Below, in pieces: positions 20,856 to 60,561 of a stretch of 64,000 nucleotides of DNA. The translations under genes and the position numbers were made by a program. Each line of letters starts with the position of its first letter. Position 1 is the first letter of the stretch. The stretch is from a candidate division FCPU426 bacterium (GTDB taxonomy: Bacteria; Oederibacteriota; Muellerivitia; Muellerivitales; Muellerivitaceae). The DNA lies in the NCBI GenBank assembly GCA_963771075.1, contig CAVYSE010000011.1, positions 256,001-320,000 of the forward strand. The letters are read 5' to 3'. The notes below the pieces were generated by a model, which was not told the DNA's origin, searched no databases, and worked only from the letters and a program-made list of their open reading frames with translations.

Positions 20856-20889
20856 TTAACGGAATTTTAATGGGCCTCCCCAGTAAAAT
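20856..20889 (+). promoter_or_regulatory. Putative KdpE-type promoter
   Basis: TTAAC-ggaatt-TTAAT, 12 bp, TAAAAT. Confidence 0.65.
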
Positions 20890-20921
20890 CCGAATGAGTT
20901 TACTTAATGGGGAGGTAAAAC

Positions 20922-20993
20922 ATGGATGCCATCTATTCCGTTGTCATCATGGTTGGGTTACTAGCCTTGTCGATCTATTACCTAAACAGCTAA
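20922..20993 (+). CDS. 23-aa single-TM micropeptide MDAIYSVVIMVGLLALSIYYLNS
   Basis: GGAGG RBS, own promoter and terminator; shares LLALS(I/V)YYL with 25053-25163. Confidence 0.7.
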   Translation: MDAIYSVVIMVGLLALSIYYLNS

Positions 20994-21011
20994 AACCCCC
21001 TTTGAATGATC

Positions 21012-21049
21012 AAAAAGGCTCCCTGTCCAAGCGGGGGGCCTTTTTGTTT
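21012..21049 (+). terminator. Intrinsic terminator
   Basis: AAAAAGGCTCCC-loop-GGGGGCCTTTTT followed by GTTT. Confidence 0.7.
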
Positions 21050-21192
21050 GGTAGTGGTTCATTTTGAATAATTCCCCACTTTGAAAGGGGGGACAGGAGG
21101 GTATTAGACTTTAACGACAAGGCTAACTCCCCCTTAATCCCCCTCTTTCAGAGGGGGAAAAAGAAGGCCCGCCATCAAACTGATCCACTACC
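21050..21192. mobile_element. 143-bp MITE with 18-bp TIRs and 8-bp target-site duplication
   Basis: GGTAGTGGTTCATTTTGA (21050-21067) and TCAAACTGATCCACTACC (21175-21192) are 16/18 inverted; TTTTGTTT flanks both sides (21042-21049, 21193-21200). Confidence 0.8.
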
Positions 21193-21201
21193 TTTTGTTT
21201 T

Positions 21202-21237
21202 AAGTCGCCGCGTTGAAATCCCCGGCTTTAGCCGGGG
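21202..21237. repeat. IS200/IS605-end-like hairpin repeat, copy 1
   Basis: AAGTCGCCGCGTTGAAATCCCCGGCTTTAGCCGGGG is identical to 49895-49930. Confidence 0.75.
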
Positions 21238-21258
21238 ACGTGCGAATTACGCACGAGG

Positions 21259-21954
21259 TTATTCCACCTTCAGGCGGTAACCCACGCCCGATTCGGTGAG
21301 GATATACTGGGGCCGGTCGGGGTCGGCCTCGATCTTGTGGCGTAATTGATAGATATATATGCGGAGGTACTGGATCTGGTCCCCGCTGGCGGGCCCCCAA
21401 ACTTCCTTCAAAATTTGTTTCTGGGTCACGACTTTGCCCGCGAATCGAATCAAAACCGCCAACAAATCGTATTCGTTGGGGGTTAGGTGCACTTCCTGCC
21501 CCCGGACTGTCACCACCCTAGCGGCCATGTCCACCCTGAAATCGGGCGTCTCGAACACTGATTCTTCCCGGCCCTGCTTGACTCTTTGGGAATGCCGCAA
21601 GGCAACCCGAAGGCGGGCCATAAGCTCCCCCACGCCGAAGGGCTTGGTCAGGTAGTCGTCGGCCCCCGCGTCCAGCCCGGCGATCTTGTCTTTTTCCTTG
21701 CCCCGGGCGGTGATAATGATCACGGGTACCGTGGACCATTCCCGGAGCCGCCTCAAGACCTCCAGGCCATCCAGGTCGGGAAGCCCCAAGTCCAAAAGTA
21801 CCAGGTCGGGGTTATGGGAACTGGCCAAGGATAGGCCTTCTTCCCCGGTTTCCGCCTCCAGGAACTTGAATCCCTGGCTGGTCAGGGTGGGCTTCAGGAA
21901 GCGGCGAATAGGTTGTTCATCCTCAATGAGTAAAATGGTTCCCGTATCGACCAT
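21259..21954 (-). CDS. kdpE: KdpE response regulator (OmpR family), copy 1
   Basis: IEDE, LLDLGLPDLDG, GADDYLTKPF, HLTPNEY, YILTESGVGYR; AAGGAG RBS; downstream of kdpD. Confidence 0.92.
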   Translation of the reverse strand: MVDTGTILLIEDEQPIRRFLKPTLTSQGFKFLEAETGEEGLSLASSHNPDLVLLDLGLPDLDGLEVLRRLREWSTVPVIIITARGKEKDKIAGLDAGADDYLTKPFGVGELMARLRVALRHSQRVKQGREESVFETPDFRVDMAARVVTVRGQEVHLTPNEYDLLAVLIRFAGKVVTQKQILKEVWGPASGDQIQYLRIYIYQLRHKIEADPDRPQYILTESGVGYRLKVE

Positions 21955-22052: not shown

Positions 22053-24740
22053 TTAATCCGCCTTTTCCGGCGGCGGCTGGAGCGGAATGGTAAAGCGGAA
22101 GACCGCCCCGCCCCCCGGCCGGTTCCTCGCTTGGATGGAACCTCCGTGGATTTCCACGATGCCCTTGCAGATCGCCAGCCCTAACCCCGCCCCTCCGCGC
22201 TTTTCCTTTTGGGGACCGCGATAGAATTTTTCGAACACTTTTTCCAGGTCCTCTTCGGGAAGCCCGGGGCCCTTGTCCATGACCTCGACCGCCACTTGCC
22301 CCTCTTCCAGCCGGAGGGATATCTCGATGGGGTTTTCGGCGGGCGTGTATTTGATGGCGTTTTCGACCAGGTTCACCAATACCTGCTCGATCAGCAAGGC
22401 GTCCATGGGCACCAGGGGCAGGTCGGGTTCGATATGGGTCTCCAGCTTCCGGTCCCCCAGCTTTTTCTCCAGCCGCATGATGGCCGAACCCACGACTTCC
22501 CCGGGGTACTGTTGTTCCAGGCGGGGTTTCACCGCCTTGGCCTCGAGTTTGGTCATTTCCAACAGGTTGTTCACCAGGCGTTCCAGCCGCTCGCTTTCGT
22601 CGTAAACATTCAAGAGCAGGTCGCTCCGGGTGCCCTCGTCCATTTTCTTGCCGTTCTCCAAAAGGCTGGAAATGGAACCCGTGATGGCGGCCAGGGGAGT
22701 GCGCAGGTCGTGGGAAAGGGAACTCAGGAGGGAACTGCGAAGCTTCTCCGCCTCCATCTGCATTTGGGTGTCCCTTTGCTTGTCCTCCAGCTTGTCCCCG
22801 GCCACGGCCAGGGCGGTCTGGTGGGCGAAAGCCTCCAACAAATGCAATTGCTCGGGGATGAAAAGCCGGTCGGCTTCCTTCGGCTTGACCCCCAACGCGC
22901 CTACGGGAGCGCCGGAAGCCAGCAAGGGCACGTAAAGAGCCTCGGTGGAAGGCAGGGTGTCGGTGCCCCGTCCGGCCATCTGGCCCAGGTCATAGGCCCA
23001 GTGGGCCACGCCTATTTCTTTCGGGGTGAGGTCGAAATCCTTCTGGTCGCCGCATTGGATCTTCAGGCGGCCCTCCGCGTCGGGCAGGAAGGCGATGACG
23101 GAACTTTCAAACACTTCGGCGATGTGCTTCACGGCGATTTCCAGGAGCTCGGCCGTGCCGCGGGTGGAGGCCAGTTCCCGGGAAAGGGCGTAGAGGGCGG
23201 CGGTGCGCCGTTCCCTCAGGCGGGAAACCTGGGCCTGGCGCCGGACCCTCACCGTCAGGTTGCTGATGGAAAGTCCCACCAATAACATCACCAGGAACAT
23301 GAATAAATATTGGGTGTCACTCACCGCGAAGGAAAACCGGGGCGGAACGAAAAAGAAATCGAAAGCGATGACGCTCAAAAAGGACGCCATGGTCGAGGGC
23401 CCGAAACCCAGTTTCGAGGACACGGCCAGGATGCCCAGAAGATAGACCATGATGAGGTTGGCTAGGTCCACGCCGGGGTAAAAGATCCAGGCCAGGCCGG
23501 TGCTGAGCCCCACGGCCAGGAGGGCCCAAAAATAACCCGCGGGTTTGAAGACGGCGCGGGCGCCCGGGGAGGCGGCGGCCCTTTTTTCCCGGGGGTCGGC
23601 CGATTCCCCCTGGGTTGTGTAGACATCGATGTCGCCGCTGAGACGGATCAAGAGGTCAATGGGGGAGGGCCGAAACAGGGATAGCCAGCCTCGCTTCAAG
23701 GGCTTTCCCACGAATATCTTGGTGACATTTCGGTGACGGGCGTAATCCATGACCTCTTCGGCGAAGAAGGATCCGCTGACAACGGCTGTTTCCGCCCCCA
23801 ACTGCTCGGCCAGGCGAAGGTTCTGGATGGCCTTGGAGCGGGTTTCATCCCCCTGGCGGGCCAGGTTCGGCGTTTCCACATAAAGGGCGATCCAGGGGGA
23901 CCTGAGGCTTTTCGCCATGCGGTGGGTGGCGCGCACCAGGCTGGCCGAGGAAGGGCTCGGCCCCACGCAAACCAGCAGGCGGTCCGCCGTCGCCCAGGTT
24001 TGGGTGATGGATTTGTCCCGGCGGTACACCTGAACCTGGTCGTTGACCCGGTCGGCGGTGGTCCTGAGGGCGATTTCCCTAAGGGCGATCAAGTTGCCCT
24101 TGCGGAAGAAATTCTGGGAAGCACGTTGGGCCGCGTCCGGCAGGTAGACTTTGCCGTCCCCCAGGCGCTTCAAAAGGTCGTCCGGCGGCAGGTCGATCAG
24201 CTCCACCTCATCCGCCATCTGCATGACCTTGTCGGGAAGGGTTTCCCGCACCACGATTCCCGTGATCTGGGCAACGATGTCGTTGAGGCTTTCCAGGTGC
24301 TGGACATTCAGGGTCGAGTAGACGTTCACGCCCAAATCCAGCAATTCCTGCACGTCCTGCCAGCGTTTCAGATGGCGGGATCCTTCCGCGTTGGTATGGG
24401 CCAGTTCATCCACCAGGAGCAGGCCGGGTTTGCGCGCCAGGGCGCCGTCGATGTCGAATTCATCCAGGCGGGTCCCGCGGTAGTCCACTTCCCGGGGAGG
24501 AAGAACCTCCAGGCCCGCCACCAGGGCGGCCGTTTCCTTCCGGCCGTGTGTCTCCACGAGGCCCACCACCACGTCCAGCCCTTCGGCCTTTTTGGCGCGG
24601 GCGGCCTCCAGCATGGAATAGGTCTTGCCCACGCCCGGGCAGGCACCGAAAAATATCTTCAGTTTCCCCTTTTTCTGGGCTAATTCTTCCGCCTGGACTT
24701 TTTCTAAGAGCTTGTCCGGGTCGGGTCTTTGGTTGTTCAT
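22053..24740 (-). CDS. kdpD: KdpD sensor histidine kinase, copy 1
   Basis: GACPGVGKT, VETHGRKET, LVDELAHTN, Usp domain, 4 TM, GAF, SHDLRTPL, HATPase GAGLGLAI. Confidence 0.95.
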   Translation of the reverse strand: MNNQRPDPDKLLEKVQAEELAQKKGKLKIFFGACPGVGKTYSMLEAARAKKAEGLDVVVGLVETHGRKETAALVAGLEVLPPREVDYRGTRLDEFDIDGALARKPGLLLVDELAHTNAEGSRHLKRWQDVQELLDLGVNVYSTLNVQHLESLNDIVAQITGIVVRETLPDKVMQMADEVELIDLPPDDLLKRLGDGKVYLPDAAQRASQNFFRKGNLIALREIALRTTADRVNDQVQVYRRDKSITQTWATADRLLVCVGPSPSSASLVRATHRMAKSLRSPWIALYVETPNLARQGDETRSKAIQNLRLAEQLGAETAVVSGSFFAEEVMDYARHRNVTKIFVGKPLKRGWLSLFRPSPIDLLIRLSGDIDVYTTQGESADPREKRAAASPGARAVFKPAGYFWALLAVGLSTGLAWIFYPGVDLANLIMVYLLGILAVSSKLGFGPSTMASFLSVIAFDFFFVPPRFSFAVSDTQYLFMFLVMLLVGLSISNLTVRVRRQAQVSRLRERRTAALYALSRELASTRGTAELLEIAVKHIAEVFESSVIAFLPDAEGRLKIQCGDQKDFDLTPKEIGVAHWAYDLGQMAGRGTDTLPSTEALYVPLLASGAPVGALGVKPKEADRLFIPEQLHLLEAFAHQTALAVAGDKLEDKQRDTQMQMEAEKLRSSLLSSLSHDLRTPLAAITGSISSLLENGKKMDEGTRSDLLLNVYDESERLERLVNNLLEMTKLEAKAVKPRLEQQYPGEVVGSAIMRLEKKLGDRKLETHIEPDLPLVPMDALLIEQVLVNLVENAIKYTPAENPIEISLRLEEGQVAVEVMDKGPGLPEEDLEKVFEKFYRGPQKEKRGGAGLGLAICKGIVEIHGGSIQARNRPGGGAVFRFTIPLQPPPEKAD

Positions 24741-24946: not shown

Positions 24947-25012
24947 TTAATTTTTCCTTAATTGTTAGTGAAACCCTCTTAACAGCATCTTAATTGGCCG
25001 TTCATTTATCAT
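24947..25012 (+). promoter_or_regulatory. Putative KdpE-type promoter with two repeat pairs
   Basis: TTAAT-N6-TTAAA (24947); TTAAC-N6-TTAAT (24979, 32 bp later); 12 bp; TATCAT. Confidence 0.7.
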
Positions 25013-25052: not shown

Positions 25053-25163
25053 ATGGACAGCCTATGGCTTCCGGCAGGAATCGTTTTGGTTCTCTTGGCC
25101 TTAAGCGTTTATTACCTGGTGCAGATCGAAAAGATAGAGCTGAAGAAGGAGTCGGACACTTAA
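25053..25163 (+). CDS. 36-aa single-TM micropeptide MDSLWLPAGIVLVLLALSVYYLVQIEKIELKKESDT
   Basis: GGGAGG RBS; hydrophobic helix with charged tail; hairpin follows at about 25195-25241. Confidence 0.7.
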   Translation: MDSLWLPAGIVLVLLALSVYYLVQIEKIELKKESDT

Positions 25164-25511
25164 AAAAATTTAAAACCAATTGATGCGTCAGGGGAGGCGC
25201 GAGGGAACGGAAATGTAGACCATTTCCTTCCCACGCGCCTTTGCTATTTAAAGGGGCGGTTAGGGATTTGTTAGTTTCAAAAAATCGAGCGTTAGCTTTT
25301 CGTTAAGTTTTAGTTAGGAAGGAATGGAAAAGGAAAAACGGGCCGATCATTCGTTAATTTTTTATTAACGAACGAACTTTTTTCGTTAGGACCAAGTTAG
25401 GTTTCGGAGCGGGAAAAACAATTTAGTGTCATCTACACAAAAGTGCCCCGCGTGTTTCGCCCGTGAAAATAAATTTGGTTGTTAACAAAGCGTTTGTTAG
25501 GAAACGGAAAG

Positions 25512-25527
25512 TGGCACGAGGTTTGCT
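25512..25527 (+). promoter_or_regulatory. Sigma-54 (-24/-12) promoter
   Basis: TGGCAC-GAGGT-TTGCT matches TGGCAC-N5-TTGCW, in the intergenic region upstream of the porin. Confidence 0.75.
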
Positions 25528-25740: not shown

Positions 25741-27366
25741 ATGAAAGCCGAAAGTTGGGTTCGGATCTTTAGAAAAGGAGCTGCTTTCCTGTTCGTGGTG
25801 TTGTTGCTCGCCGTGACAGGAAGGGCGCTTGCGGATAGCGCAACGCCGGTAGCAACTGCTGCGGCGACGCCGGCCGCTGCGCCATCAAGTCTGCAAGGGT
25901 TCATGAATTACGCGGACTTCACTTGGGTGAATGGGAATACGCGCGAACATGATTTCCCGCTGGACGGGAAGTTCTTTTCGCCCGAACTGCTGTTTGACAC
26001 TAATTACACCTACAATTTCGCCAATCCGAAAGACAACGTAGTCGACGGTTCCACTTGCGTGGAGCATTCAGGCCAGGTGGACGTCGAACACATCGGCGTC
26101 GGGGGTGATTTCCATATCCCGGTCGGGGACGGCGGGGATTACGTGAGAGCCCGGCTCATGACGGAATTCGGCAATTACGCCGAGCAGATCCCGCGCGATG
26201 ACGAAACTCCGGCCAAGGGCGCCTGGAATGTCATTCCGGGGGTACAATACCTTACGGAAGCCTACGGCGGCTATCACATCGCCATACCCGGAACGGATGG
26301 CATGAACATCGACATGGGCCAGTTCCCCTCTTACGTCGGGCTTTTCAGCTTTTACGATTCGGAAAACTGGTGCTACCAGGCTTCGTATGTTTCCTCAAAT
26401 ACGCCCTGGTTCTTCACGGGAATGCGCATCCAGTTTTTCCCCAATGATACCCTTAAGATCGAGCCCTGGCTGATCAACGGCTGGCAAACCTACGGGTCGT
26501 TCAACAACGGGGTTTATGGTCTTCCCATGGACTTGGGAATGGAAATCCGTTGGGCTCCGAATCCGAGCTTGGTGCTTATCTTCAACAACTACGCGGGAGC
26601 GGACAACCCGAATTCACCCGATTGCGTCAAGTACCACACGGATGACAGCGCCGTTGTCAAGTACATGGACGATCCGAAATCGGACGGCATCACTAAGATG
26701 GCCTTTTCCCTTACCTGCGACGCGGGGATGCAAACAGGGCCTATGTACGTAGGCTTTGCAAGCGGGGTTGGACCTGCTGGCACCACAAACGGTTCGGGTG
26801 GAGCCCTTTCCCCAACCGGCGGTGCTTATGTCGGGGCGGGCGCTAGTGGCAACGGCATTTTTGGAACCGGCGAATACGCCAATTCCCAAGGTTACGTGAA
26901 CGTGGGTCCTAACGGGCAAAACGGGGAAAGCTTCCTGGGGGCCATGTTCTACAACAGGATTTGGTTCGCCCACGATACCTGGGCCTTTACTTTCGGTGGC
27001 GGTGCGATGGAAAACCAAGGCGCTTATCTGGCCCTGCTTCCGCCGATTAACGGGGATACGGGGGCTAATTATTTCGGTGATACAAATGCCGTCGCGGCTT
27101 TCGGGGAATACCCGGGTGAGGCCTGGACAGCATGGGATTATGACTTTGGCCTGCAGTTCATGCCGGACCAGTACTTTACCGTCGACTTGGAATACACCCA
27201 CCGCGCTTCCAGTCTCAATTACTTCGTTGGGCCGGGCGGGATCACTTCCACGGATGGTTGGGGTCCCGGGGCGGGTACGGGTTCAACCCAAGTCAATGGG
27301 GGTTATTCACCGAACCTGGTTCAGACTGAGGACTTAATCATGAGCTCCATCATGGTGCACATATAA
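25741..27366 (+). CDS. Outer-membrane beta-barrel porin (BBP2/DUF1597-like)
   Basis: Signal peptide; EAYGGYH, IDMGQFPSYVGL, NTPWFFTGMR, WLINGWQ segments typical of the family; amphipathic C-terminal strand. Confidence 0.75.
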   Translation: MKAESWVRIFRKGAAFLFVVLLLAVTGRALADSATPVATAAATPAAAPSSLQGFMNYADFTWVNGNTREHDFPLDGKFFSPELLFDTNYTYNFANPKDNVVDGSTCVEHSGQVDVEHIGVGGDFHIPVGDGGDYVRARLMTEFGNYAEQIPRDDETPAKGAWNVIPGVQYLTEAYGGYHIAIPGTDGMNIDMGQFPSYVGLFSFYDSENWCYQASYVSSNTPWFFTGMRIQFFPNDTLKIEPWLINGWQTYGSFNNGVYGLPMDLGMEIRWAPNPSLVLIFNNYAGADNPNSPDCVKYHTDDSAVVKYMDDPKSDGITKMAFSLTCDAGMQTGPMYVGFASGVGPAGTTNGSGGALSPTGGAYVGAGASGNGIFGTGEYANSQGYVNVGPNGQNGESFLGAMFYNRIWFAHDTWAFTFGGGAMENQGAYLALLPPINGDTGANYFGDTNAVAAFGEYPGEAWTAWDYDFGLQFMPDQYFTVDLEYTHRASSLNYFVGPGGITSTDGWGPGAGTGSTQVNGGYSPNLVQTEDLIMSSIMVHI

Positions 27367-27551: not shown

Positions 27552-27585
27552 TTGATGAATTTTTAATGGGCACAGGTTGGATAAT
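27552..27585 (+). promoter_or_regulatory. Putative KdpE-type promoter of kdpE2
   Basis: TTGAT-gaattt-TTAAT, 12 bp, GATAAT. Confidence 0.55.
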
Positions 27586-28544: not shown

Positions 28545-28659
28545 AAATGTTTTCGTTTTGATTCTTGTTAGGGTCTCAAAGATTCTCCGGGCCTTTACAA
28601 CCCGGAATCCGATGGTATTTCAATGGTATTATTCCCGAAGCAAATCCTAGGTGGTTTTC

Positions 28660-31347
28660 ATGACTGATCAACGACCCGATCCCGATGCCCTCTTAAGGCG
28701 TTTCAGGGATGAGGAAGAAAGCAAAAACCGGGGAAAACTCAGGATATTTTTCGGTTATGCCCCGGGGGTGGGCAAAACCTACGCCATGCTCCAAGCCGCG
28801 CAGGCCAAGAAGGCCCAAGGCGGGGATGTGGTGGTGGGAATCGTGGAAACCCACGGCCACCCCGGGATGACGGCCCTCCTGGAGGGATTAGAGATCATCC
28901 CTCCCTTGGAAATTCATCAAGATAACCAACCCTGGAAGGAACTGGATTTGGACGGGGCCTTGAGCCGCAAGCCCCGGCTGTTATTGGTGGACGACCTGGC
29001 CACCATCAACGCGAAGGGGTCCCGCCACTTGAAGCGATGGCAGGATATCCAGGAGCTTCTTCTCAGTGGTATTAATGTCTATACCACCCTCAATGTCCAG
29101 CACCTGGAAAGCCTGAACGATATCATCAACCGGATCACGGGAACCATCGTTTGGGAAACCCTTCCGGACTCGGTCTTGGAAAAGGCGGATGAGGTGGAGC
29201 TGGTCGACCTTCCCCCCGACGATTTGATCGAGAGGCTCGCGGAAGGGAAGGTGGACATCTCGGCGCAAGACCCCCGGGCCATGCAAAATTTCTTCCAAAA
29301 AGCGAACCTGGTGGCCCTGCGGGAGATGACCTTCCGCATGGTCGCGGACCGCTTGAACGACCAGGTCCAGGCGTTAAGGCGGGACCAGGCGGCCATCCCG
29401 AACTGGGAAACCCAGGATCACCTGCTGGTCTGCGTGGGCCCTACCCTTTCCTCGGCGAACCTGGTGCGGACCGCCCACCGCATGGCCAAGGCCCTCCGGG
29501 TCGACTGGATCGCAGTCTACGTTGAAACACCGGCCCAAGCCCGGCAGGCGGAAGCCGAATCCCGGGCGATCCTGAATCTTCGCCTCGCCGAACAATTGGG
29601 AGGGGAAGCGGTGCTCTTGAGCGGGGTAGATTTCGCGGAGGAAGTCATCGACTTCGCCAAGGCCCGTAAAGTCTCGAAGATTTTGGTGGGCCAGCCGAGA
29701 GAAAGGCCCTGGTGGAAAATCCTCAGCCGATCGCCCGTGGACCAGCTTTTACACCAAGGCCCCGATATCGACATCTACGTCACCAAATGGGAGACACCCT
29801 TTACGCCCAAACCACCGGGCCGGGGGAAACCCTTGAAAATAAACTGGTTGGGATACGGCTTGGCCGCGGTTTGCACGGCCGTTTGCACCGGGCTGGCTTG
29901 GCTGATTTTCCCGCCGGAACTGAAAACCAACCTGGACCTGCCCAACGACACCATGGTCTTCCTCCTGGGCAGCCTGGCCTTCGCCGCCATGCAGGAAATC
30001 GGGCCTTCGATATTTTTTTCCATCCTGAGCGTGCTGTGCCTCGACTTCTTCTTCACCCCACCCCTCTTCGAGTTCGACGTATCCGATAACCGTTATATAT
30101 TGGTTTTTTTCGTCATGCTTTTCGTCTCCCTTTCCATTAACGGCCTGATGTTGAGGGTGAGGGCCCAGGCCCGCCTTTCCCGTATCCAGGAACGGCGCAC
30201 GACCGCGCTTTACGGCCTATCCCGGGACCTGGCTTCCAACCGGGGGACGGACGAGCTGCTCATGATCGCCATCAAGCATATCTCCGATTTCTTCGAGAGC
30301 TCGGTGGTGGCTCTCTTGCCCGACGAAAAGGGTGTCCTGAGGGCGCGAGGCGGGGACCTGGCAGACTTTAATTTATCCTCGAAGGAAATGGCGACCGCTC
30401 ACTGGACCTTCGACCTTGGCCAGATGGCCGGCCGGGGTACGGAAACCCTGCCGGGCGCCGAGGCCCTTTACCTGCCCCTCTTGGCCACGGGGGCGCCGGT
30501 GGGCGTGCTGGCCGTCAAGCCCCGCTTCACGGAAAAGTCCTTTATCCCCGAGCAACTTCATCTTTTGGAGGCCTTCGCCCACCAGACGGCCCTGGCCGTG
30601 GCCGGGGACGAGTTGGCGGAAAAGCAGAAACAAACCCAGGTCGAGATAGAAACGGAAAAGCTCCGGAGCTCGCTTCTCAGTTCCGTTTCCCACGACCTGC
30701 GAACCCCCCTGGCCACGATCAAGGGTTCCATTGGCGGATTGCTGGAAGCGGGGGAACAACTGGGGGCGGCGACCCGGCGGGATTTCCTCGAGAACATCCA
30801 CGATGAGGCCGACCGGCTGGAACGACTGGTCAATAACCTGCTGGAAATGACCAAACTGGAGTCGGGGGCCATCCAGGCGGTCAAGGTCGCCAATTATCCC
30901 GAGGAGGTCATTGGGTCGGCCATTTCACGGGTCGAAAAGAGGCTCGGGAACCGAACTCTCAATACCCGGATCCCGTCTGATCTCCCAACCGTCCCCATGG
31001 ACGGTCTTTTGATTGAGCAGGTTTTGGTGAACCTATTGGATAATGCCTTGAAGTACACCGCGTCCGAGGCTGCCATCGAAATTTCCACTTGGACCTGGAA
31101 AAATCAATGGTTCGTGAGGGTGTCCGACTCGGGCCCGGGGGTCAAAGAGGAAAACCTCCCGAAGTTGTTCGACAAGTTTTTCCGCGGGGACCAATCGGGC
31201 AAAAAAACAGGTGCCGGTTTAGGTTTGGCCATCTGCAAGGGTATTATTGATATTCATGGGGGTGAATTAAGGGCGGAAAACCGGCCCGGAGGCGGGTTGT
31301 CCTTTGAATTCTTTTTGCCCATCGCTAGCTCAAACCCAATCACCTAA
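28660..31347 (+). CDS. kdpD: KdpD sensor histidine kinase, copy 2 (divergent N-terminal motifs)
   Basis: GYAPGVGKT, TTLNVQHLESLND, SHDLRTPL, GAGLGLAI; same architecture as copy 1. Confidence 0.93.
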   Translation: MTDQRPDPDALLRRFRDEEESKNRGKLRIFFGYAPGVGKTYAMLQAAQAKKAQGGDVVVGIVETHGHPGMTALLEGLEIIPPLEIHQDNQPWKELDLDGALSRKPRLLLVDDLATINAKGSRHLKRWQDIQELLLSGINVYTTLNVQHLESLNDIINRITGTIVWETLPDSVLEKADEVELVDLPPDDLIERLAEGKVDISAQDPRAMQNFFQKANLVALREMTFRMVADRLNDQVQALRRDQAAIPNWETQDHLLVCVGPTLSSANLVRTAHRMAKALRVDWIAVYVETPAQARQAEAESRAILNLRLAEQLGGEAVLLSGVDFAEEVIDFAKARKVSKILVGQPRERPWWKILSRSPVDQLLHQGPDIDIYVTKWETPFTPKPPGRGKPLKINWLGYGLAAVCTAVCTGLAWLIFPPELKTNLDLPNDTMVFLLGSLAFAAMQEIGPSIFFSILSVLCLDFFFTPPLFEFDVSDNRYILVFFVMLFVSLSINGLMLRVRAQARLSRIQERRTTALYGLSRDLASNRGTDELLMIAIKHISDFFESSVVALLPDEKGVLRARGGDLADFNLSSKEMATAHWTFDLGQMAGRGTETLPGAEALYLPLLATGAPVGVLAVKPRFTEKSFIPEQLHLLEAFAHQTALAVAGDELAEKQKQTQVEIETEKLRSSLLSSVSHDLRTPLATIKGSIGGLLEAGEQLGAATRRDFLENIHDEADRLERLVNNLLEMTKLESGAIQAVKVANYPEEVIGSAISRVEKRLGNRTLNTRIPSDLPTVPMDGLLIEQVLVNLLDNALKYTASEAAIEISTWTWKNQWFVRVSDSGPGVKEENLPKLFDKFFRGDQSGKKTGAGLGLAICKGIIDIHGGELRAENRPGGGLSFEFFLPIASSNPIT

Positions 31348-33165: not shown

Positions 33166-33230
33166 ATAACTGGCTGCTAACGATTCTGTCGTTCCTCCTA
33201 ACAACGGCCTAACCCTCCCCAAAATATAAT
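33166..33230 (+). promoter_or_regulatory. Putative KdpE-type promoter (upstream of a tandem pair)
   Basis: ATAAC-N6-CTAAC (33166); CTAAC-N6-CTAAC (33198); 11 bp; TATAAT. Confidence 0.65.
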
Positions 33231-33383: not shown

Positions 33384-33481
33384 CTAACGGCTTCTTAACA
33401 AGTACTCCCGTTCTTATAACGGCAACATAACGCCGATCAAGCCCCTTCTAACAGCAAGCTAACCCCCCCTGGACGTATATT
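33384..33481 (+). promoter_or_regulatory. Putative KdpE-type promoter with three repeat pairs at a 32-bp period
   Basis: CTAAC-N6-TTAAC (33384); ATAAC-N6-ATAAC (33416); CTAAC-N6-CTAAC (33448); 12 bp; TATATT. Confidence 0.78.
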
Positions 33482-33510: not shown

Positions 33511-33606
33511 ATGACACCGCAACTACTGATTTCCGTGGGAATGTCGTTGACTGTCGCTGGCCTGGCCTGCATGGCCTATATCCAGCTTTTCTGGAAAGAG
33601 AATTAA
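33511..33606 (+). CDS. 31-aa single-TM micropeptide MTPQLLISVGMSLTVAGLACMAYIQLFWKEN
   Basis: GAGGAGG RBS; first ORF after the triple-repeat promoter. Confidence 0.65.
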   Translation: MTPQLLISVGMSLTVAGLACMAYIQLFWKEN

Positions 33607-33701: not shown

Positions 33702-34145
33702 ATGAAAAATTTAAACAAAACGACAACCTTAGCGCTGGCCATGGCTATGGTGTTCGGGATAACCACCCTGAGTTTCGCCGGTAATCACCCGGCCTTGACC
33801 TATCCCCAAGGGGCGATTGCCACCTCGGATTCCCCGGCGCAAGTGGCCGAGACGAATCCATGGCACAAAGGCGCGCTTAAGTACGCTTCGGGGCTCGTCG
33901 TTTTCGGGCCTTGGTACACGAGTTGCCCCGTTAGTCACGCGGCGCTTAATTCCAAGCATCCGGGTGTCGTTGTCGCCTTGTCGAACGGGAAGTTGATCCT
34001 GCTGGCCAGCGCCGGGTTGAAAGGCGAAGTGGAGGCGAATCCCGGAAAATACGCCGCTTATATGTATGGTACGGCGTCGAGCGATAGGGCCTCCGACATT
34101 CATATGGCGGATGCCGCGGGTTCTACCGGGAATCAGAAGGACTAA
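33702..34145 (+). CDS. Secreted protein with degenerate YHS-like domain
   Basis: TAAGGAGG RBS; signal peptide; CPVS...NGKLILLAS...NPGKY pattern. Confidence 0.65.
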   Translation: MKNLNKTTTLALAMAMVFGITTLSFAGNHPALTYPQGAIATSDSPAQVAETNPWHKGALKYASGLVVFGPWYTSCPVSHAALNSKHPGVVVALSNGKLILLASAGLKGEVEANPGKYAAYMYGTASSDRASDIHMADAAGSTGNQKD

Positions 34146-34280: not shown

Positions 34281-34655
34281 ATGAAAAAAATCGAGGCGAT
34301 TATCCGGCCCGCCAAATTCGAGGACGTCAAGGCGGCGTTGAAGGAAGCGGGTTACGGCGGATTGACCGTAACCGAGGTGGAGGGGCACGGGATGCAAAAG
34401 GGAGTCACCCAGCAGTGGCGGGGCCGTCAATACAAGGCGGAGCTCCTGCCCAAGATCAAGCTTGAGATCGTATGTCCCGCGAACGAGAAGGACAAAATTC
34501 TCAAGGCCATTATGCGAAGCGCCTACACGGGCCAGGTGGGGGATGGGAAGATCTTCGTTTATGAGGTAGGCGAGGCCTACCGGATCAGCAGCGGGGAATC
34601 GGGCGAGAAGGTCGTCATGCAGGAAAAAGAAACCAGGACGATGGCGGTACTCTGA
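34281..34655 (+). CDS. P-II family regulator 1 (GlnK/GlnB-like)
   Basis: MKKIEAIIRP, GHGMQKG, WRGRQY (Tyr51 equivalent), LPKIKLEIV, TGQVGDGKIF. Confidence 0.92.
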   Translation: MKKIEAIIRPAKFEDVKAALKEAGYGGLTVTEVEGHGMQKGVTQQWRGRQYKAELLPKIKLEIVCPANEKDKILKAIMRSAYTGQVGDGKIFVYEVGEAYRISSGESGEKVVMQEKETRTMAVL

Positions 34656-34676
34656 AAAACAGATTGGCGGTTTATC

Positions 34677-35063
34677 ATGTTAAAAATCGAAGCCATTATC
34701 CGGCCTGAAAGATTAGAGCTGGTCTGCGCGAAATTGAAGCGGGTGGGTTACCCGGGAATGATGGTGATGGAAATGGAAGGCCATGGGCGCCAAGGAGGCC
34801 TTCATTCCCATTGGCCGGCGGATTTGCGGATCCAATTTCTTCCCAAAGTGAGGATCGAGATCGTGATAGAAAACAAGGACCAGTTAAAAGTCATCAAGGC
34901 CATCCTTTCGGGTGCAAAGACCGGGGAAGAAGGAGATGGAAAGATATTTATCACCGAAATCAAGGAAGCCATCCGGATCCGCACCGGAGAAAGGGGCGTG
35001 AGCGCCCTTTCCCAGGAAAAGATCCAGCAACCCAAAAAGCAGGGAGTGTTGGCCCGCAATTAG
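34677..35063 (+). CDS. P-II family regulator 2 (altered T-loop)
   Basis: KIEAIIRP, GHGRQGG, FLPKVRIEIV, GDGKIF, RIRTGE. Confidence 0.9.
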   Translation: MLKIEAIIRPERLELVCAKLKRVGYPGMMVMEMEGHGRQGGLHSHWPADLRIQFLPKVRIEIVIENKDQLKVIKAILSGAKTGEEGDGKIFITEIKEAIRIRTGERGVSALSQEKIQQPKKQGVLARN

Positions 35064-35096
35064 GAGAGATTTCTATTTAAAGGAGTAATTAAAAGT

Positions 35097-35432
35097 ATGA
35101 AACGTATTGAAGCCATCGTCCGGCCCAATGCCTTAAGGGCCGTATTGGAAAGTTTGGAAGCCATTGGATATCCGGGCGTGACGGTCCAGGAAGCCCAAGG
35201 ACATGGGACGCAGAAGGGCGCAACGGATATCTACCGCAGTCAAAGCGTCGAGGGTCTCCTCCCAAAATTGGTGGTTTCCATGGTGGTGGAGGACCCTCTC
35301 GTTGAGAAAACCATTGATTCCATCGTTAAGGCCGCACGCAAGGGTGAAATCGGGGACGGAAAGATTTTTGTTTACTCGGTCGTGGACGCGGTTCGGATTC
35401 GCACGGGCGACAGGGGCAAGGCCGCGCTCTGA
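35097..35432 (+). CDS. P-II family regulator 3
   Basis: RIEAIVRP, GHGTQKG, LLPK, GEIGDGKIF, RIRTGD. Confidence 0.9.
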   Translation: MKRIEAIVRPNALRAVLESLEAIGYPGVTVQEAQGHGTQKGATDIYRSQSVEGLLPKLVVSMVVEDPLVEKTIDSIVKAARKGEIGDGKIFVYSVVDAVRIRTGDRGKAAL

Positions 35433-35973: not shown

Positions 35974-36132
35974 TCAAAAATACTCGCCTCGTGACGATTC
36001 ATCCTAGTGCGCCGCCTGGCGTTTGAACAACCGGATTATATTATTTTCCCGCAAGAGAAATGTTTTTAATACTTTCCTAATTTTTCACCCGCCTGATGCC
36101 GCCTTATTGAAATTAACATTTGTTAATTTACA

Positions 36133-36197
36133 TTAATATTTTCCTAACGTTTCCCGCCAACTTCTAACAGCAACCTAACGCGCGCCCGCAGTACACT
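36133..36197 (+). promoter_or_regulatory. Putative KdpE-type promoter, probably leaderless transcript
   Basis: TTAAT-N6-CTAAC (36133); CTAAC-N6-CTAAC (36164); 12 bp; TACACT; ATG 6 nt later with no RBS. Confidence 0.7.
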
Positions 36198-36203: not shown

Positions 36204-36821
36204 ATGAAGAATTCACATTTGTTAATTTTGATGAGCGAGACGAAACTTTCGCCCGAGCAATTGGCGAAGAGACTGGGGATCTCCAACATGTCCATCCGCC
36301 GCTGGATGAAAAATTCTCCGAACGCGAAGGTACCGGCGATCTACGAAAAGACGGTTTGGGACGCCGTCTACCAGATGGTCGCGGAGGGAATGCTTTCACC
36401 CGAATCAGCTTTCGTCCGGAAGGCCGTGAAGGAAAGCCAGCGGTTTTATTTCAGGGCCGCCATCAAGAGCCTGGGCTTCAAGGGGACGACGCGGGGAAAA
36501 GCGAAGTTCTCGGTGAATTCCATCATGAAGGGGCTTTCCGAGATCGGGGCCCAGGAAGGGCACCAAACGGTCGTGGAAAAGGATAAAAAGAAAATCAATT
36601 CATTCATCAGGCTGGGACGGGATTGGAAAGAAAGAATCACCGCCTTGATGAAAGTGACCGCCAGTCAAAGCCTTTCCGAAAGGGACAAGCTCGTGGCCTA
36701 TGGGGCGTTGTTTTACCTGCTCTGCCCTTTGGACCTGATCCCGGATAACGTTCCGGTGTTTGGGATGATGGACGATTACTGCGTGCTGGGTTTGGCGGCT
36801 GCGCATTACGCCGAAAAATAA
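36204..36821 (+). CDS. HTH + DUF1232 (YkvA-like) fusion protein
   Basis: N-terminal SPEQLAKRLGISNMSIRRW HTH; C-terminal YLLCPLDLIPDNVPVFGMMDD DUF1232 motif. Confidence 0.78.
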   Translation: MKNSHLLILMSETKLSPEQLAKRLGISNMSIRRWMKNSPNAKVPAIYEKTVWDAVYQMVAEGMLSPESAFVRKAVKESQRFYFRAAIKSLGFKGTTRGKAKFSVNSIMKGLSEIGAQEGHQTVVEKDKKKINSFIRLGRDWKERITALMKVTASQSLSERDKLVAYGALFYLLCPLDLIPDNVPVFGMMDDYCVLGLAAAHYAEK

Positions 36822-36846: not shown

Positions 36847-38370
36847 ATGAAAAAAATTCTATATGGATTCAGCCTAACGATTTGGGGCTTGGCCTGCGGG
36901 GCTGGCGCCCAAACCTTGACCCTGGAGCAGGCCATCCGGTCCACCTGGGAGAATTCGTCCCAGTTACAGGCCCAAAAGGCCCTGGCGGGCATCTATTCGG
37001 ATGATACCTGGAGGCGGTTTGTGCCGGCGGAACCCAGCTTTTCCTATACGGACGACTACAGCGAGACCTTCTATACCCTGGGGCTTTCCCTGACCTACCC
37101 CTTCCCCTTGAAGAGCATCATCATGAACCAGCTGGACTGCGCAAACGCCGAACAACAAAGGTTCGAACTCACCGCCCAAAAATACGATTTGGCGGTCGCC
37201 ATCGCCCAGGCCTACATGAATGGTGCCACCGCCCAGGCCATGATCGAGTTCCAGAGGCAGAACGTGCAGGACCTGGAAACCATCACCGAGGCTATCCGCC
37301 TCCAATACGTGCATGGGCAGTCCAACCAGACCCAAAAGATCAGCGCCGAACTGCAGTTGACCCAGGCCCAAAGGGATCTCAAGACCGCCCAGGACCAACT
37401 GTCGACGGCCGTGGAATTGTACGCCCGGCTCATGAAAATTCCCCCCGTCCAGGTGACGGGTTTCGAATTGCCGGAGGACGTCCCTCCCTCCATCATCCGT
37501 GAATTGGGTGACCGAACTTCCGGGCAATTAAGGGATAAGGCCAATGTGGACGTGAATGAGGCCACCCGGGCCACCGGATTTTGGAACCAGTTTCCGGACC
37601 CGACTTTCAGCTTCAACAAGGATTACTACAACCCCAACAACTCGATTGTGCCTTTAAACGACAGTCCCACCCAGCAGCCCAGTGACTATAACTGGACCAT
37701 TTCCTTTACCCTCCCCATCCTGTTTCCCGTGCACGAGGTGGCGGAAGCCCAGCGCACCGAGAACCAGGGGGTCGTCGCCCGGGAACAGGCCAAATTGCAG
37801 TTGATCCAGGACAACTCGGCCCAGGAGGCTGGGGTGCTCGATTACAAGCGCAGTGTGGTCCGGTTCCGCCAATTGCATGACCGGGACCTGCTCCTGGCCG
37901 AGACCATGAGACAGGCCGCGGTGGAGGCCTATAAAAGAGGCCAGCTCCATTTCGCGGACCTGATGCTGGCCCGGCAGACCTACGCCAGCCTGAAGACCGA
38001 GGATATCCAGATCCGCCAGGAAATCGTCACCGCTCACCTGGCCGGATTAAGGGAATTATCGAAGAACCCTGAAACCGACGCTTCCATTCAAACGCAATCC
38101 ATCCCGGCTAACAACAACCCTCAAGTCTCCTCCGCGGCTGGGCCCGCTTCAACGAATCCAACCGCAACAGCGGTTCCGGCGCCCGTTCATCTATTGGGTG
38201 CGCCGGACGTAACCGGTGAAATTCCGGGCTCAAAACAGGATGTAAAACCCGCGGCCGAACCAGCCGCGAAAGAAAACCCAACAGACGAGGGCGAAACCAG
38301 TCAAGCCATCCCCCTGGCGACGCCCACGGCAGGAATAACGGCCGGGGATGACTCAAAAGAAACAAAGTAA
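36847..38370 (+). CDS. TolC-family outer-membrane efflux protein with Pro/Ala-rich tail
   Basis: Signal peptide, LTLEQAI start, YxxG coiled-coil repeats; precedes MFP and RND genes. Confidence 0.8.
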   Translation: MKKILYGFSLTIWGLACGAGAQTLTLEQAIRSTWENSSQLQAQKALAGIYSDDTWRRFVPAEPSFSYTDDYSETFYTLGLSLTYPFPLKSIIMNQLDCANAEQQRFELTAQKYDLAVAIAQAYMNGATAQAMIEFQRQNVQDLETITEAIRLQYVHGQSNQTQKISAELQLTQAQRDLKTAQDQLSTAVELYARLMKIPPVQVTGFELPEDVPPSIIRELGDRTSGQLRDKANVDVNEATRATGFWNQFPDPTFSFNKDYYNPNNSIVPLNDSPTQQPSDYNWTISFTLPILFPVHEVAEAQRTENQGVVAREQAKLQLIQDNSAQEAGVLDYKRSVVRFRQLHDRDLLLAETMRQAAVEAYKRGQLHFADLMLARQTYASLKTEDIQIRQEIVTAHLAGLRELSKNPETDASIQTQSIPANNNPQVSSAAGPASTNPTATAVPAPVHLLGAPDVTGEIPGSKQDVKPAAEPAAKENPTDEGETSQAIPLATPTAGITAGDDSKETK

Positions 38371-39351: not shown

Positions 39352-39362
39352 TACGAAATAAA

Positions 39363-57624: not shown

Positions 57625-57656
57625 GCCTTTTCACGGCCACTCTTGGGGGTGTGCTG

Positions 57657-58067
57657 ATGCAAATACGCCAAAGGCCGCTCAAAAGGGTCCGCATCGAGAT
57701 CATCCCCATGATCGACGTGATCTTCTTTCTGCTGGTGTTCTTTATGGTGACGTCCCTCGCAATGACCCGCATTAACAGCGTCAAGGTCCTGCTCCCCAAG
57801 ATGTCGGGCAAGGCCGAGAACATGAAGCAAAACATCATATTGACCGTCAAGAAGGATGGGTCCCTGCTCATCAACAAAACCTCCGTGACCCTGGACACCC
57901 TTGGCAGCCAACTGGCCTACCAGATGCAGGCCAACCCCCAGGACGTGGTGATCATCAACGCGGATGAGGGCGTGGGTTACGGCCAAGTGGTGGAGGCCAT
58001 GAACAAGGCCAAGGAAGTGGGGGTGCGCAGGTTCGCCCTCGTGGCCGAGGCGGATAAAGACAAATGA
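57657..58067 (+). CDS. exbD: ExbD biopolymer transporter
   Basis: IIPMIDVIFFLLVFFMVT, INAD...YG.VV. Confidence 0.9.
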   Translation: MQIRQRPLKRVRIEIIPMIDVIFFLLVFFMVTSLAMTRINSVKVLLPKMSGKAENMKQNIILTVKKDGSLLINKTSVTLDTLGSQLAYQMQANPQDVVIINADEGVGYGQVVEAMNKAKEVGVRRFALVAEADKDK

Positions 58068-58669
58068 CCACCTTTGACGAATATTCGAGCCTGGACCAGG
58101 ATGCCAAGAGACTCCGGCAGGCCGCTACGTGGGCGGTGGTTTTGGAAGCTTTGGTTTTTATCGCACTAGACCTGGGGCACCTTCCGTTTTTGCGGAATCC
58201 CTTTAACTCCACAGATTATGTCGAGGCCCAAATCATCCAGTTACCCCCCAATGCCCATTTGACCGGGGCGCAGGCAGTCAAAGATGAGGATGAAGTAGTT
58301 TTCAGTCACAAGGAAAACCACCGGAAGAAGGCTGAAAAAAAGGCACCGCCGAAAACAGCCGAACCCCAAAACCAAGTTGAAGCGGGGCCGTCTCTTGGGC
58401 CCACCCATGGGCCCGTGGCTTTTTACGCCCCCGCACCGGTGATTCCAACTTATCTCCGGGACCAGAATTTGAAAACCAGCGTGGTGATCGAATTCCTCAT
58501 CACCGCCCAGGGACAGGTTACGCCCCGGCTATTGGATTCCAGCGGAAATGACGAGCTGGACGCCATCGCCCTGAAAACCGCTTCGAAGTGGCAGTTCAAG
58601 CCCGCAGCCAAGGATAATACGCCCGTTGATTCCAAGACCCGGCTGAGGATATTGTTTGAGGTGTCTTGA
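58064..58669 (+). CDS. tonB: TonB energy transducer
   Basis: N-terminal TM, Lys/Pro linker, SSGNDELD..A...WQFKPA. Confidence 0.85.
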   Translation: MTTFDEYSSLDQDAKRLRQAATWAVVLEALVFIALDLGHLPFLRNPFNSTDYVEAQIIQLPPNAHLTGAQAVKDEDEVVFSHKENHRKKAEKKAPPKTAEPQNQVEAGPSLGPTHGPVAFYAPAPVIPTYLRDQNLKTSVVIEFLITAQGQVTPRLLDSSGNDELDAIALKTASKWQFKPAAKDNTPVDSKTRLRILFEVS

Positions 58670-58681
58670 ACAGGGGGGAAG

Positions 58682-59641
58682 ATGCATACCGAAAACCTGA
58701 GCGCCTGGACCCACGAGCACGTTTACACCGGGCAAAATACCCATGCCGAGAACAGCACCAGGATTGTGGCCGCCATTACGGCCACGATGATGGTGGTGGA
58801 AATCGTGGCGGGGTGGCTATTGAATTCCATGGCTCTCCTGGCCGACGGCTGGCACATGAGTTCCCATACCCTGGCCATCGGCTTAAGCGCCCTGGCCTAT
58901 GCCCAGGCTCGCCGCCAGGCCACGGACGCCCGCTACGCCTTCGGCACCTGGAAGATTGAGGTTTTGGCCGGTTACACCAGCGCGGTCCTCTTAATGGTCA
59001 TCGCAGGCCTAATGGTTTGGGGTTCCATCGGCAACCTGATCACCCCCAAACCCATCCATTTCGCCCAGGCCATCCCCATCGCCATCGTGGGTTTGACGGT
59101 CAACATCGTTTGCGCGTTGATATTGGGTAATGCCCACCACCATGGACATGATCACGGCGACGGGCACGAACATTCCCATGATCCCGGTGATGACGCTCAC
59201 CACGATTTGAACCTCAAGTCGGCCTATATCCACGTGGCCGTGGATGCCGCCACCTCGGTGTTGGCGGTCCTTGCCCTGACCGGCGGGCTTTACCTGGGTT
59301 GGGTCTGGCTCGATCCGATCATGGGCATGGTTGGCGCGGGGGTGGTGTCGCTTTGGGCTTGGGGGCTGATCCGGGAAACCGGGAAGGTTCTCCTGGACCG
59401 CGAAATGGACCGGCCGGTCGTGGCTGAAATTAGGGAGGTGGTCGAGAAACACCCCGAATGGTCGAAATCGACCCGCATTTCCGACCTGCATGTTTGGCGA
59501 GTGGGGAAAGAAAACTATTCCTGCGTGTTAAGTCTGGTAACCGACGACCAGGGCCTGACCCCCCAGGCGGTCAAGGCTGCCTTAGCCCAGCACGAGGAAA
59601 TTTCCCACGTCAGCGTAGAAATCAATCTCTGCCCTCATTGA
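58682..59641 (+). CDS. dmeF: CDF-family Co/Ni/Zn efflux transporter (DmeF-like)
   Basis: SMALLADGWHMSSH, His-rich loop, NLKSAYIHV..DA, DLHVW. Confidence 0.85.
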   Translation: MHTENLSAWTHEHVYTGQNTHAENSTRIVAAITATMMVVEIVAGWLLNSMALLADGWHMSSHTLAIGLSALAYAQARRQATDARYAFGTWKIEVLAGYTSAVLLMVIAGLMVWGSIGNLITPKPIHFAQAIPIAIVGLTVNIVCALILGNAHHHGHDHGDGHEHSHDPGDDAHHDLNLKSAYIHVAVDAATSVLAVLALTGGLYLGWVWLDPIMGMVGAGVVSLWAWGLIRETGKVLLDREMDRPVVAEIREVVEKHPEWSKSTRISDLHVWRVGKENYSCVLSLVTDDQGLTPQAVKAALAQHEEISHVSVEINLCPH

Positions 59642-59822
59642 TCTTTCTGGTATGGGACAAGGTGCGATGCGTGTTGCGGGATAAAATAAAGCAATTCTAA
59701 TCCGGGCGAGGGGATGGCTTTCACGGTGAACGGCTTCAAATTCAATGGATGGGGATAAAAAAAACGCCAGAGCCGAATGAAGTTTCGGACTCTGGCGATG
59801 AAAACTTAGCGGCTTGAGGCTA

Positions 59823-60074
59823 TTAAAGGGTCTGTTTGCGTTGTGTACCCTGGGCGATCATCCCGATGATGAACCAAGCATCGCACGCCAGCATGGCCAC
59901 GCAATAGATCGAAGCGACCCAGGCGAAGATCGTGTGTTGATCCCATAACAGGCTCCAGGCCTGTGAAATCGTTGTGTTGGGATCCTGCGAAAGGCCCATT
60001 AAGCCTGCGGCGACCATCACGATTCCCGCCACGGTCAGCATCCCCATCACCGTTAACATCTGTGATTTTTTCAT
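59823..60074 (-). CDS. 83-aa 2-TM membrane protein
   Basis: GGAGG RBS; protein-level conservation with the paralog at 53135-53386. Confidence 0.75.
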   Translation of the reverse strand: MKKSQMLTVMGMLTVAGIVMVAAGLMGLSQDPNTTISQAWSLLWDQHTIFAWVASIYCVAMLACDAWFIIGMIAQGTQRKQTL

Positions 60075-60495
60075 GACTACCTCCCTCACTTGACGAATGT
60101 CTTTTTTTTATGAAAGACCCCCGGGGTCTTCCGGCTTAAGGATTTTTCCCTCGTGTTTGTTCCTAACGAAAGAATAACACCCCTAACGATTTATTAACAA
60201 GATGGATTGTCCATCCAACGCCCCATCCGGAATATGACGGTGGTCACGAGCGCGCTTAAAATTAAAAACGCGGATAAAAATATTTTTTTCTCCATCAGCT
60301 TCACCGCAAAAACAAAAGATCAAATCGTAGTTATTAGTAAATCGTTAGGTTTTTGTTAGGCCCTACTTTTTTGTATTTACGTTGATTCTCCCTAAAAAAA
60401 TATTTTTCGGAACCCTTTTTTTACCCCCGAAAGACCCATGTCCGTAGGGTGCAAAGCCGTTTCTTTGGGGTACTGCCTTAACAAAATCCTTCATT

Positions 60496-60561
60496 TTAAT
60501 TTTTCCCTTATTTTTGTCGGTCCTCTCTTAACGGCATCCATATCCCCTTTAGCCGTAATGT
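60496..60561 (+). promoter_or_regulatory. Putative KdpE-dependent promoter of the kdp operon
   Basis: TTAAT-N6-CTTAT (60496); TTAAC-N6-CATAT (60528, 32 bp later); 12 bp; TAATGT; closely resembles 24947-25012. Confidence 0.7.

Follow-up and report, generated by a model that had tools for sequence, protein, structure and literature searches.

Does a KdpE-type response regulator reach beyond the potassium pump operon? The question is raised by a 64,000-nucleotide stretch of a candidate division FCPU426 genome (assembly GCA_963771075.1, contig CAVYSE010000011.1, positions 256,001 to 320,000; here called the window), in which one promoter-like element recurs before kdpFAB and several other units. 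The first-pass annotation of this DNA had described seven copies of the element and proposed that KdpE controls a K+ response much wider than kdpFABC. In our analysis, five of the seven are real and conserved and very probably serve as KdpE-type activator sites, with KdpE as their presumed ligand. For the system as a whole we favor, with a probability of about 0.58, a conserved promoter signal of the kdp island that provides activator sites for two paralogous KdpE proteins, which would share a core site and divide the targets between them.

The window corresponds to C11:256001-320000 of a 4.39-Mb genome in 28 contigs (G000), on which genes were called within this analysis. Its part from 20.8 to 64 kb encodes a minus-strand kdpE1-kdpD1 pair, a BBP2 porin, kdpE2-kdpD2, an FGE-domain protein, three P-II proteins, an HTH-DUF1232 protein together with the three components of a CzcA/ZneA-like RND pump, a cluster of metal-uptake genes and kdpFAB (Table 1). 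The comparison set comprised 41 genomes, of which 23 carry kdpA, and loci were retrieved from 20 relatives. The block porin-kdpE2-kdpD2-FGE-peptide-YHS-like-three P-II-(HTH)-RND-83-aa gene is also present in G001, G003, G008, G013 and G020. Close sequence matches to the window come from soil metagenome runs.

A recurring promoter element in the kdp island

The element, or box, is an 11-bp direct repeat (YTAAC-RGMAWC-YWWAY) followed after 12 bp by TANNNT; in many cases another pair lies 32 bp farther upstream. The proximal pair brackets the -35 slot, and the 6-bp spacer RGMAWC falls exactly there. Direct reading of the letters bore out every coordinate and spacing given in the first-pass annotation. 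The TANNNT hexamer follows the pairs at 20856, 24979, 33448, 36164 and 60528 after exactly 12 bp and the pair at 33198 after 11 bp; extra upstream pairs lie 32 bp away at 24947, 33166, 33384, 33416 and 60496, and 31 bp away at 36133. Some half-sites are inexact (the first at 27552 is TTGAT, the second at 60528 CATAT and the second at 60496 CTTAT). Further pairs had been overlooked on the minus strand (25274, 25306, 25317, 25368, 25400, 53506, 60348, 60359) and on the plus strand (25354, 36066, 60163, 60183).

Seed-free expectation-maximization on the DNA upstream of kdpA in 18 relatives (window and G001 excluded, L017 too short) recovered the same motif de novo before kdpFABC in 16 of them. 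The motif is a conserved footprint of the kdpFABC promoter. When a 76-column matrix built from these 16 sites was run over the genome, four hits exceeded 5 bits: 60528, 24979, 33448 and 36164. A second matrix, made from 62 sites that the first had chosen in loci other than those of G000 and G001 (a few of them probably chance matches), ranked 24979, 36164, 60528, 33448 and 20856 first to fifth (26.9-33.4 bits), with the next position at 21.8 bits. The proposed sevenfold grammar therefore holds for these five sites. The array at 33198, with its off-register -10, is plausible, though 17 genome positions match its pair-only score, and 27552 is background, with 6806 positions equally good on the pair alone.

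In the 4.4-Mb genome of G000, the only one scanned genome-wide with the matrix, no strong site was found beyond the 40-kb island. The sixth-ranked position (C24:111246) lacks TANNNT and was set aside as a site. A box-like element without a -10 is conserved between C24:111200-111290 of G000, where it precedes an enhancer-binding-protein gene, and C1:398610-398645 of G004. A generic sigma-70/terminator scan of 20700-37000 did no better than on shuffled DNA and called no boxed promoter.

Intergenic DNA of the island (10,261 bp, within limits drawn after the sites had been seen) contains 20 strict pairs compared to 0.9 expected from AT-richer intergenic DNA elsewhere. The motif is thus not equally frequent in AT-rich intergenic DNA, the objection that the first-pass annotation had itself foreseen. 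Pairs numbered 0.65 on average, and 4 at most, in 500 dinucleotide shuffles, and nine other gap lengths gave 0-4. The strict pair with N12 and TANNNT occurs four times in the island and four-box arrays occur eight times, versus none of either in the other 970 kb. Over the whole genome, enrichment of the strict pair is slight (126 at gap 6 versus 64-121 at other gaps, with 20 of the 126 in the window). It should also be noted that one of the 20 island pairs, at 21123, is part of a dispersed repeat.

With at most one mismatch, a degenerate pattern of the box is present in 19 of 23 kdpA-positive genomes versus 1 of 18 kdpA-negative ones; in that one genome, G028, the boxes stand 5' of truncated kdpD genes, of a kdpE-like gene and of a KimA-like transporter. 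A box lies 5' of the peptide/YHS-like unit in five of five island genomes and 5' of the HTH gene in four of four; in G013, which has lost the HTH gene, it is retained before the outer-membrane factor. A second HTH-RND-P-II operon, on another contig of G020, is also boxed. Identity is 0.87-1.0 in the half-sites versus 0.58-0.68 in the 12-bp spacer (12 and 8 promoters). An exact scan of GTDB returned 28 loci, seven of them at kdp loci of the same family; the other 21, in unrelated genomes without kdp neighbors or an upstream pair, were read as chance. Because the motif is the conserved kdpFABC footprint and also stands before other units, KdpE-type control is the best reading.

The claimed site before kdpE2 (27552) recurs in the nearest relative, G001, only, and with its background-level score it does not serve as an argument for KdpE autoregulation. 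In G016, a box directly 5' of kdpD (L169, C83, about 6388, minus strand) may be a true autoregulatory site.

The HTH-RND promoter and the other putative target units

We retrieved 75 metagenome loci with HTH-DUF1232 homologues, and 67 remained once eight C-terminal-only matches had been dropped. The box stands at the same distance in all 10 homologues of at least 67% identity (20.6-27.7 bits) compared to none of the other 57 (best score 4.4). A start codon occupies the position of window 36204 in all 63 distinct upstream regions, with a Shine-Dalgarno match in two. TTGACA, allowing one mismatch, is found in 28 of 53 distinct distant homologues, 16-18 bp before a hexamer slot six bases from the ATG; TANNNT fills this slot in all 10 close homologues and in 20 of the 53 distant ones. 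The simplest reading is that the gene is leaderless and that its ordinary -35 element (TTGACA) was replaced by the box in the island lineage. Such a replacement supports both the -10 assignment and an activator role. With the start site predicted from this gene, the two proximal half-sites would lie near -40 and -29, and those of the distal pair near -72 and -61.

All 10 close homologues and 27 of the 53 distant ones retain a palindrome over the start of the HTH gene, with no more than 3 of its 14 positions mismatched. This palindrome is likely the autorepression operator of a widespread leaderless repressor, although its conservation may be partly coding. The HTH-DUF1232 protein was rejected as the box binder, since its gene occurs in 6 of 41 genomes (one a weak partial match) versus 20 genomes with the box. 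In distant organisms, the HTH-RND unit recurs with P-II and KdpE-like regulators (the L108, L134, L115, L104, L148 set), and its neighbors include a phosphotransferase-system EIIA-domain gene (L108, L134, L104), BamA-like and BBP2 genes (L108, L134) and kdpABC (L148). EIIA-Ntr (PtsN) is described as a KdpD partner (PMC8534201).

Most boxes head a short hydrophobic peptide. Peptides mp1 and mp2 form one loose family together with a peptide that follows kdpC in 10 of 19 loci (at a distance of about 105 bases or less in seven), and five other genomes have six boxed stand-alone peptide cassettes between them. When the mp1 family was compared with the KdpF profile, no alignment resulted, and PF09604 (KdpF) was matched by 60905-60994 only and by none of mp1-mp5; short peptides weaken both tests. 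The protein encoded at 33702-34145 had no Pfam hit (PF04945 was sought) and reached YHS clusters of the Atlas at 0.82-0.84, with all Atlas scores below 0.9. Paralogues of this gene precede other RND operons.

The first-pass annotation had placed micropeptides, a YHS-like/PII locus and the HTH-DUF1232/RND operon under KdpE. Boxes are indeed conserved before the micropeptides, the peptide/YHS-like unit and the HTH-RND unit; the P-II part does not follow, as the trio is unboxed and in this genome is preceded by a terminator-like hairpin with a T run. In two close metagenome loci, no obvious T run was seen at the hairpin before the trio. P-II genes lie directly behind kdpC in G004 and G013 and 1.5 kb behind it in G005, and G020 has a shortened P-II gene with its own box. 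The family is rich in P-II (12 matches in G000), which weakens the argument from linkage. In the tree, the three P-II proteins cluster with paralogues that this genome has at ammonium-transporter and porin loci.

Genome-wide, the sigma-54 motif found before the BBP2 porin has 15 matches, all of them intergenic and several located 5' of ammonium transporter/P-II or BBP2/P-II genes; the genome encodes about ten enhancer-binding proteins. An Atlas search with the 83-aa protein gave only scores below 0.9. One-base insertions split kdpA (62081) and kdpB (63699); that in kdpA is absent from the otherwise identical contig 4 of run X1 and is therefore likely an assembly error.

Table 1. Promoter elements, regulators and predicted target units in the window.
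Feature	Position	Strand	Remarks
Box 1: half-site pair, 12 bp, -10; heads mp1	20856..20889	+	rank 5 in genome; like cassettes in G003, G004, G008, G020, G021
Box 2: two pairs 32 bp apart and -10; heads mp2	24947..25012	+	rank 1; forward box at same place in G001, G003
Claimed kdpE2 site, unsupported	27552..27585	+	-2.6 bits; seen in G001 only
Four-half-site array, -10 at 11 bp; plausible binding array, promoter uncertain	33166..33230	+	rank 20; absent in G001
Box 3: three pairs, 32-bp period, and -10; heads mp3 and YHS-like gene	33384..33481	+	rank 4; kept in 5/5 island genomes
Box 4: two pairs and -10, six bases 5' of ATG 36204	36133..36197	+	rank 2; 10/10 close homologues
Box 5: kdp promoter, two pairs and -10	60496..60561	+	de novo motif in 16/18 relatives; ranks 1-3
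kdpE1, OmpR-family regulator	21259..21954	-	domain searches, alignment, tree
kdpD1, Walker B Asp-Glu intact	22053..24740	-	domain search, alignment
kdpE2, separate clade, altered recognition helix	27613..28332	+	tree, alignment
kdpD2, Walker B Glu lost, phospho-His box kept	28651..31347	+	alignment
mp1, 23-aa hydrophobic peptide, ribosome-binding site, terminator-like hairpin	20922..20993	+	
mp2, 36-aa peptide of mp1 family, then hairpin	25053..25163	+	
mp3, 31-aa hydrophobic peptide, own family	33511..33606	+	
Peptides mp4 (57 aa), mp5 (32 aa), kdpF (29 aa)	60620..60994	+	
Secreted-type protein, YHS-like as lead only	33702..34145	+	terminator-like hairpin 34218-34250 behind
Three P-II genes, three different clades, no box of their own	34281..35432	+	
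HTH-DUF1232 gene, predicted leaderless	36204..36821	+	start-codon comparison of homologues
Outer-membrane factor, adaptor, CzcA/ZneA-like RND pump	36847..42576	+	domain searches
Palindromic operator copy 1; likely HTH autorepression	36110..36129	not assigned	copy 2 at 36210-36227, inside HTH gene start
Reverse-strand CTAAC arrays upstream of sigma-54 motif	25259..25400	-	
Sigma-54-type -24/-12 motif before BBP2 porin	25512..25527	+	motif in 7/10 BBP2 upstream regions
BBP2 porin (start approximate)	25795..27366	+	
83-aa membrane protein; candidate extra regulon member	59823..60074	-	
Triple CTAAC array before 83-aa gene	60333..60359	-	opposite-strand pairs at 60163-60198
kdpA and first part of kdpB; a one-base insertion in either gene in this assembly	61064..64000	+	

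Other parts of the window are of separate interest. A metal-uptake-like block at 43000-59650 (ABC/FtsX, four DUF3299, MerC, TonB receptor, ExbBD-TonB, DmeF) is absent in G001 and is flanked by two copies of a small membrane gene, that at 53186-53386 being shortened; no strong box was found within it in the genome-wide matrix scan. A DUF559 nuclease gene with C/G-rich inverted repeats (32560-33070), also absent in G001, has a copy of the FGE-domain gene's 3' end on either side, and its repeat type also yields the pair at 21123. At 12230-15880, a glycoside-hydrolase-like gene is seemingly split into several open reading frames, possibly by more assembly errors. An Rfam scan of the window returned 0 matches.

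Two KdpDE paralogues and competing explanations

KdpE1 and KdpE2 are 73% identical. Both have a receiver and a winged helix, lie adjacent to kdpD and keep the equivalents of R193, R200 and T215. KdpE2 falls in its own clade (10 rows, support 100/99) and its recognition helix is changed. Both KdpD paralogues have the ATPase domain and a phospho-accepting His box, which is intact in KdpD2; the Walker B Glu is absent from five of five KdpD2 and present in five of five KdpD1 proteins, with residue equivalence set by motif position. The periplasmic loop of KdpD senses K+, and KdpD2 also differs in this loop; given both changes, its signal need not be K+. In E. coli, the Walker B Glu is described as essential for phosphorylating and inhibiting KdpB (PMC11018627).

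Triple-CTAAC arrays match 11 times in the 41 genomes (control 4), with nine of the 11 in the KdpE2 islands of five genomes. These arrays and the KdpE2 clade speak against KdpE as the one regulator of the first-pass annotation and indicate two paralogues whose half-site preferences partly differ. Together with the lost Walker B Glu and altered loop of KdpD2, the tracking of these arrays with KdpE2 suggests a division of labor, and a second sub-regulon under KdpD2/KdpE2 is likely. Six genomes with a single KdpE-like match (G002, G009, G014, G015, G018, G024) carry the box at kdpF, which points to KdpE1 at that promoter. A third KdpE-like gene and a truncated KdpD-like kinase lie at C11:348979-358994 of G000 (L042); their neighbors are a KimA-like transporter and, under a sigma-54 motif, an APC permease-P-II fusion. 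One model ranked fifth a four-box site of TTTAT/TTTAC type in this region (C11:350981, minus strand).

Several observations weigh against two KdpE proteins acting through these boxes. The 55 matches of the degenerate pattern in 41 genomes, versus 18 for the reversed control, come from a pattern derived partly from the same sites and from relatives that are not independent. The pattern fails to match in kdpA-positive G006 and G022, and in the expectation-maximization set the box is absent or unrecognized 5' of kdpA in G025 and G033. Both KdpE proteins (278 and 257 versus 325) and both KdpD proteins (930 and 808 versus 1123) score below the NCBIfam cut-offs, though these are their best hits. The TTAAC/CTAAC split is noisy: among 12 HTH promoters three start with T and one with A, 2 of 16 kdpF promoters begin with C rather than T, and G008 has KdpE2 but no exact triple-CTAAC array. 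The 10 close HTH homologues form one clade and so represent one evolutionary event. A related TTAAC repeat in pst promoters makes cross-talk possible. Finally, the YTAAC/YWWAY half-site differs from the TTTA(T/C)A described for E. coli, and an extra proximal pair brackets -35 here where one pair is described there (PMC3264566).

A single undivided regulon, in which both paralogues would recognize every box equally and K+ limitation would induce all units, amounts to the earlier proposal without the kdpE2 site. One matrix from kdpF promoters detects both site classes, the paralogues are similar and share the same three DNA-binding residues, and the same peptide family lies behind kdpC; the altered recognition helix and separate clade of KdpE2, the near confinement of triple-CTAAC arrays to KdpE2 islands and the changes in KdpD2 make such uniformity, in our view, somewhat unlikely. 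Chance matches in AT-rich intergenic DNA do account for 27552, for the repeat-derived pair at 21123 and for the 21 GTDB matches lacking kdp neighbors. As a general explanation, chance is hardly credible given the pair counts and shuffles, the conservation of half-sites while the spacer diverges, and the matrix ranks, which with the pair counts already refute it for five sites.

PhoB/pho-box promoters have direct repeats over the -35 slot and no TTGACA. The box resembles this class, and the pst promoters of this clade carry a TTAAC-N6-TT(A/T)AC repeat with a related half-site (a conserved pho-box-like TTAAC array precedes a porin-pstS operon at C4:35690-35740 of G000 and in L171-L189). With six OmpR-type regulators in the genome and a metal-type RND pump among the targets, another family member (PhoB-like, CusR-like or the third KdpE-like protein) could be imagined to bind the boxes. 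However, the local pst arrays consist of contiguous 11-bp repeats whose flanks and spacing differ, and none of 19 pst upstream regions scored above -1.2 with the Kdp matrix. Furthermore, there is no strong site outside the island, the kdp-negative family members G007 and G010 have pstS without a box match, and the six genomes with one KdpE-like protein keep the box, so this binder is improbable. More improbable still is a reading of the proximal element as a -35 region for an alternative sigma factor: the conserved spacer does sit exactly in the -35 slot and an ECF-like sigma gene lies behind kdpC in this genome, but the same spacer is found again in upstream copies (33384, 33416) that have no -10 nearby, a dimeric activator would account for both the direct repeat and the 32-bp period, and the ECF-like gene is present in 1 of 40 relative loci only.

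Proposed regulation and its meaning

In the two-regulator model that we prefer, phosphorylated KdpE dimers would bind head-to-tail at about -40/-25 and -72/-57, and bound KdpE would recruit sigma-70 polymerase in place of a -35 element. KdpD1/KdpE1 would drive kdpFABC and the stand-alone mp1 and mp2 cassettes through TTAAC-type sites under K+ limitation. KdpD2, a kinase that has lost the pump-inhibiting serine-kinase glutamate, would act with KdpE2 mostly on the mp3/YHS-like unit, the 83-aa gene and the leaderless HTH-RND operon, through CTAAC-type sites. The HTH protein would likely repress its own operon as a second input, and the P-II genes of this genome would be reached via read-through only. 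A much wider K+ response, as first proposed, overstates the case, because no strong site lies beyond the 40-kb island and the KdpD2 signal need not be K+; judged from the DNA, the predicted regulon is a local island with two regulators and not a genome-wide K+ response.

The model agrees with E. coli KdpD/KdpE in its OmpR-family regulator, 11-bp period, R193/R200/T215 equivalents and kdpFABC target. The distal pair, predicted at -72/-57 from the presumed start, coincides with the E. coli KdpE site, described as direct repeats at -72 to -50 (PMC3264566). Unlike E. coli KdpE, reported as a single-target regulator (PMC5934670), the island has two KdpDE systems and would have about six target units. 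A precedent for an extended KdpE regulon comes from Caulobacter crescentus, for which several candidate direct targets besides kdp are reported (bioRxiv 10.1101/2023.07.05.547876); there, as described, the motif is unrelated and GC-rich, one KdpDE is present and targets are dispersed, whereas here they cluster in one island. The mycobacterial KdpE motif differs again, and NH4+ is reported to induce kdp (PMC5401905).

Single-pass peptides under a two-component system, their induction here being predicted, recall the PhoPQ-MgrB precedent among the MgrB and PtsN controls of kinases (PMC8534201) and mycobacterial KdpF, which is reported to bind KdpD and MmpL (PMC3618439). The mp1 family did not align with KdpF. 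As at the PII-NG loci, where P-II genes stand beside czcABC operons (PMC7726332), P-II genes here adjoin a CzcA-type RND operon; unlike the loci described there, they lie in a kdpDE island and group with the ammonium-transporter and porin-locus paralogues of their own genome. In the open-access literature (supplements excluded) we found no paper on the box motif, a P-II-kdp link or such a second KdpDE island.

A broader scenario is speculative and, we think, rather unlikely. KdpD2/KdpE2 might be a Kdp sensor put to a new use: released from policing the K+ pump, it would respond to a different cation or to the ammonium/nitrogen state and turn on the P-II trio and the RND exporter. The KdpE-induced peptides might then act as MgrB-like feedback on KdpD or the pump, and the island would form a K+-nitrogen-metal junction through KdpE boxes grafted onto pre-existing promoters.

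If the two-regulator model holds, a KdpE-type site whose additional pair spans the -35 slot would mark a compact, multi-target regulon rich in unannotated membrane peptides, accompanied by a duplicated KdpDE in which one kinase appears to have lost one of two catalytic roles. The HTH-RND promoter would be a clean natural case of regulon rewiring, with the same leaderless gene under TTGACA elsewhere and under the box here. The system may thereby give handles on the signal of the second KdpD and on links between K+, ammonium and metals in soil bacteria.

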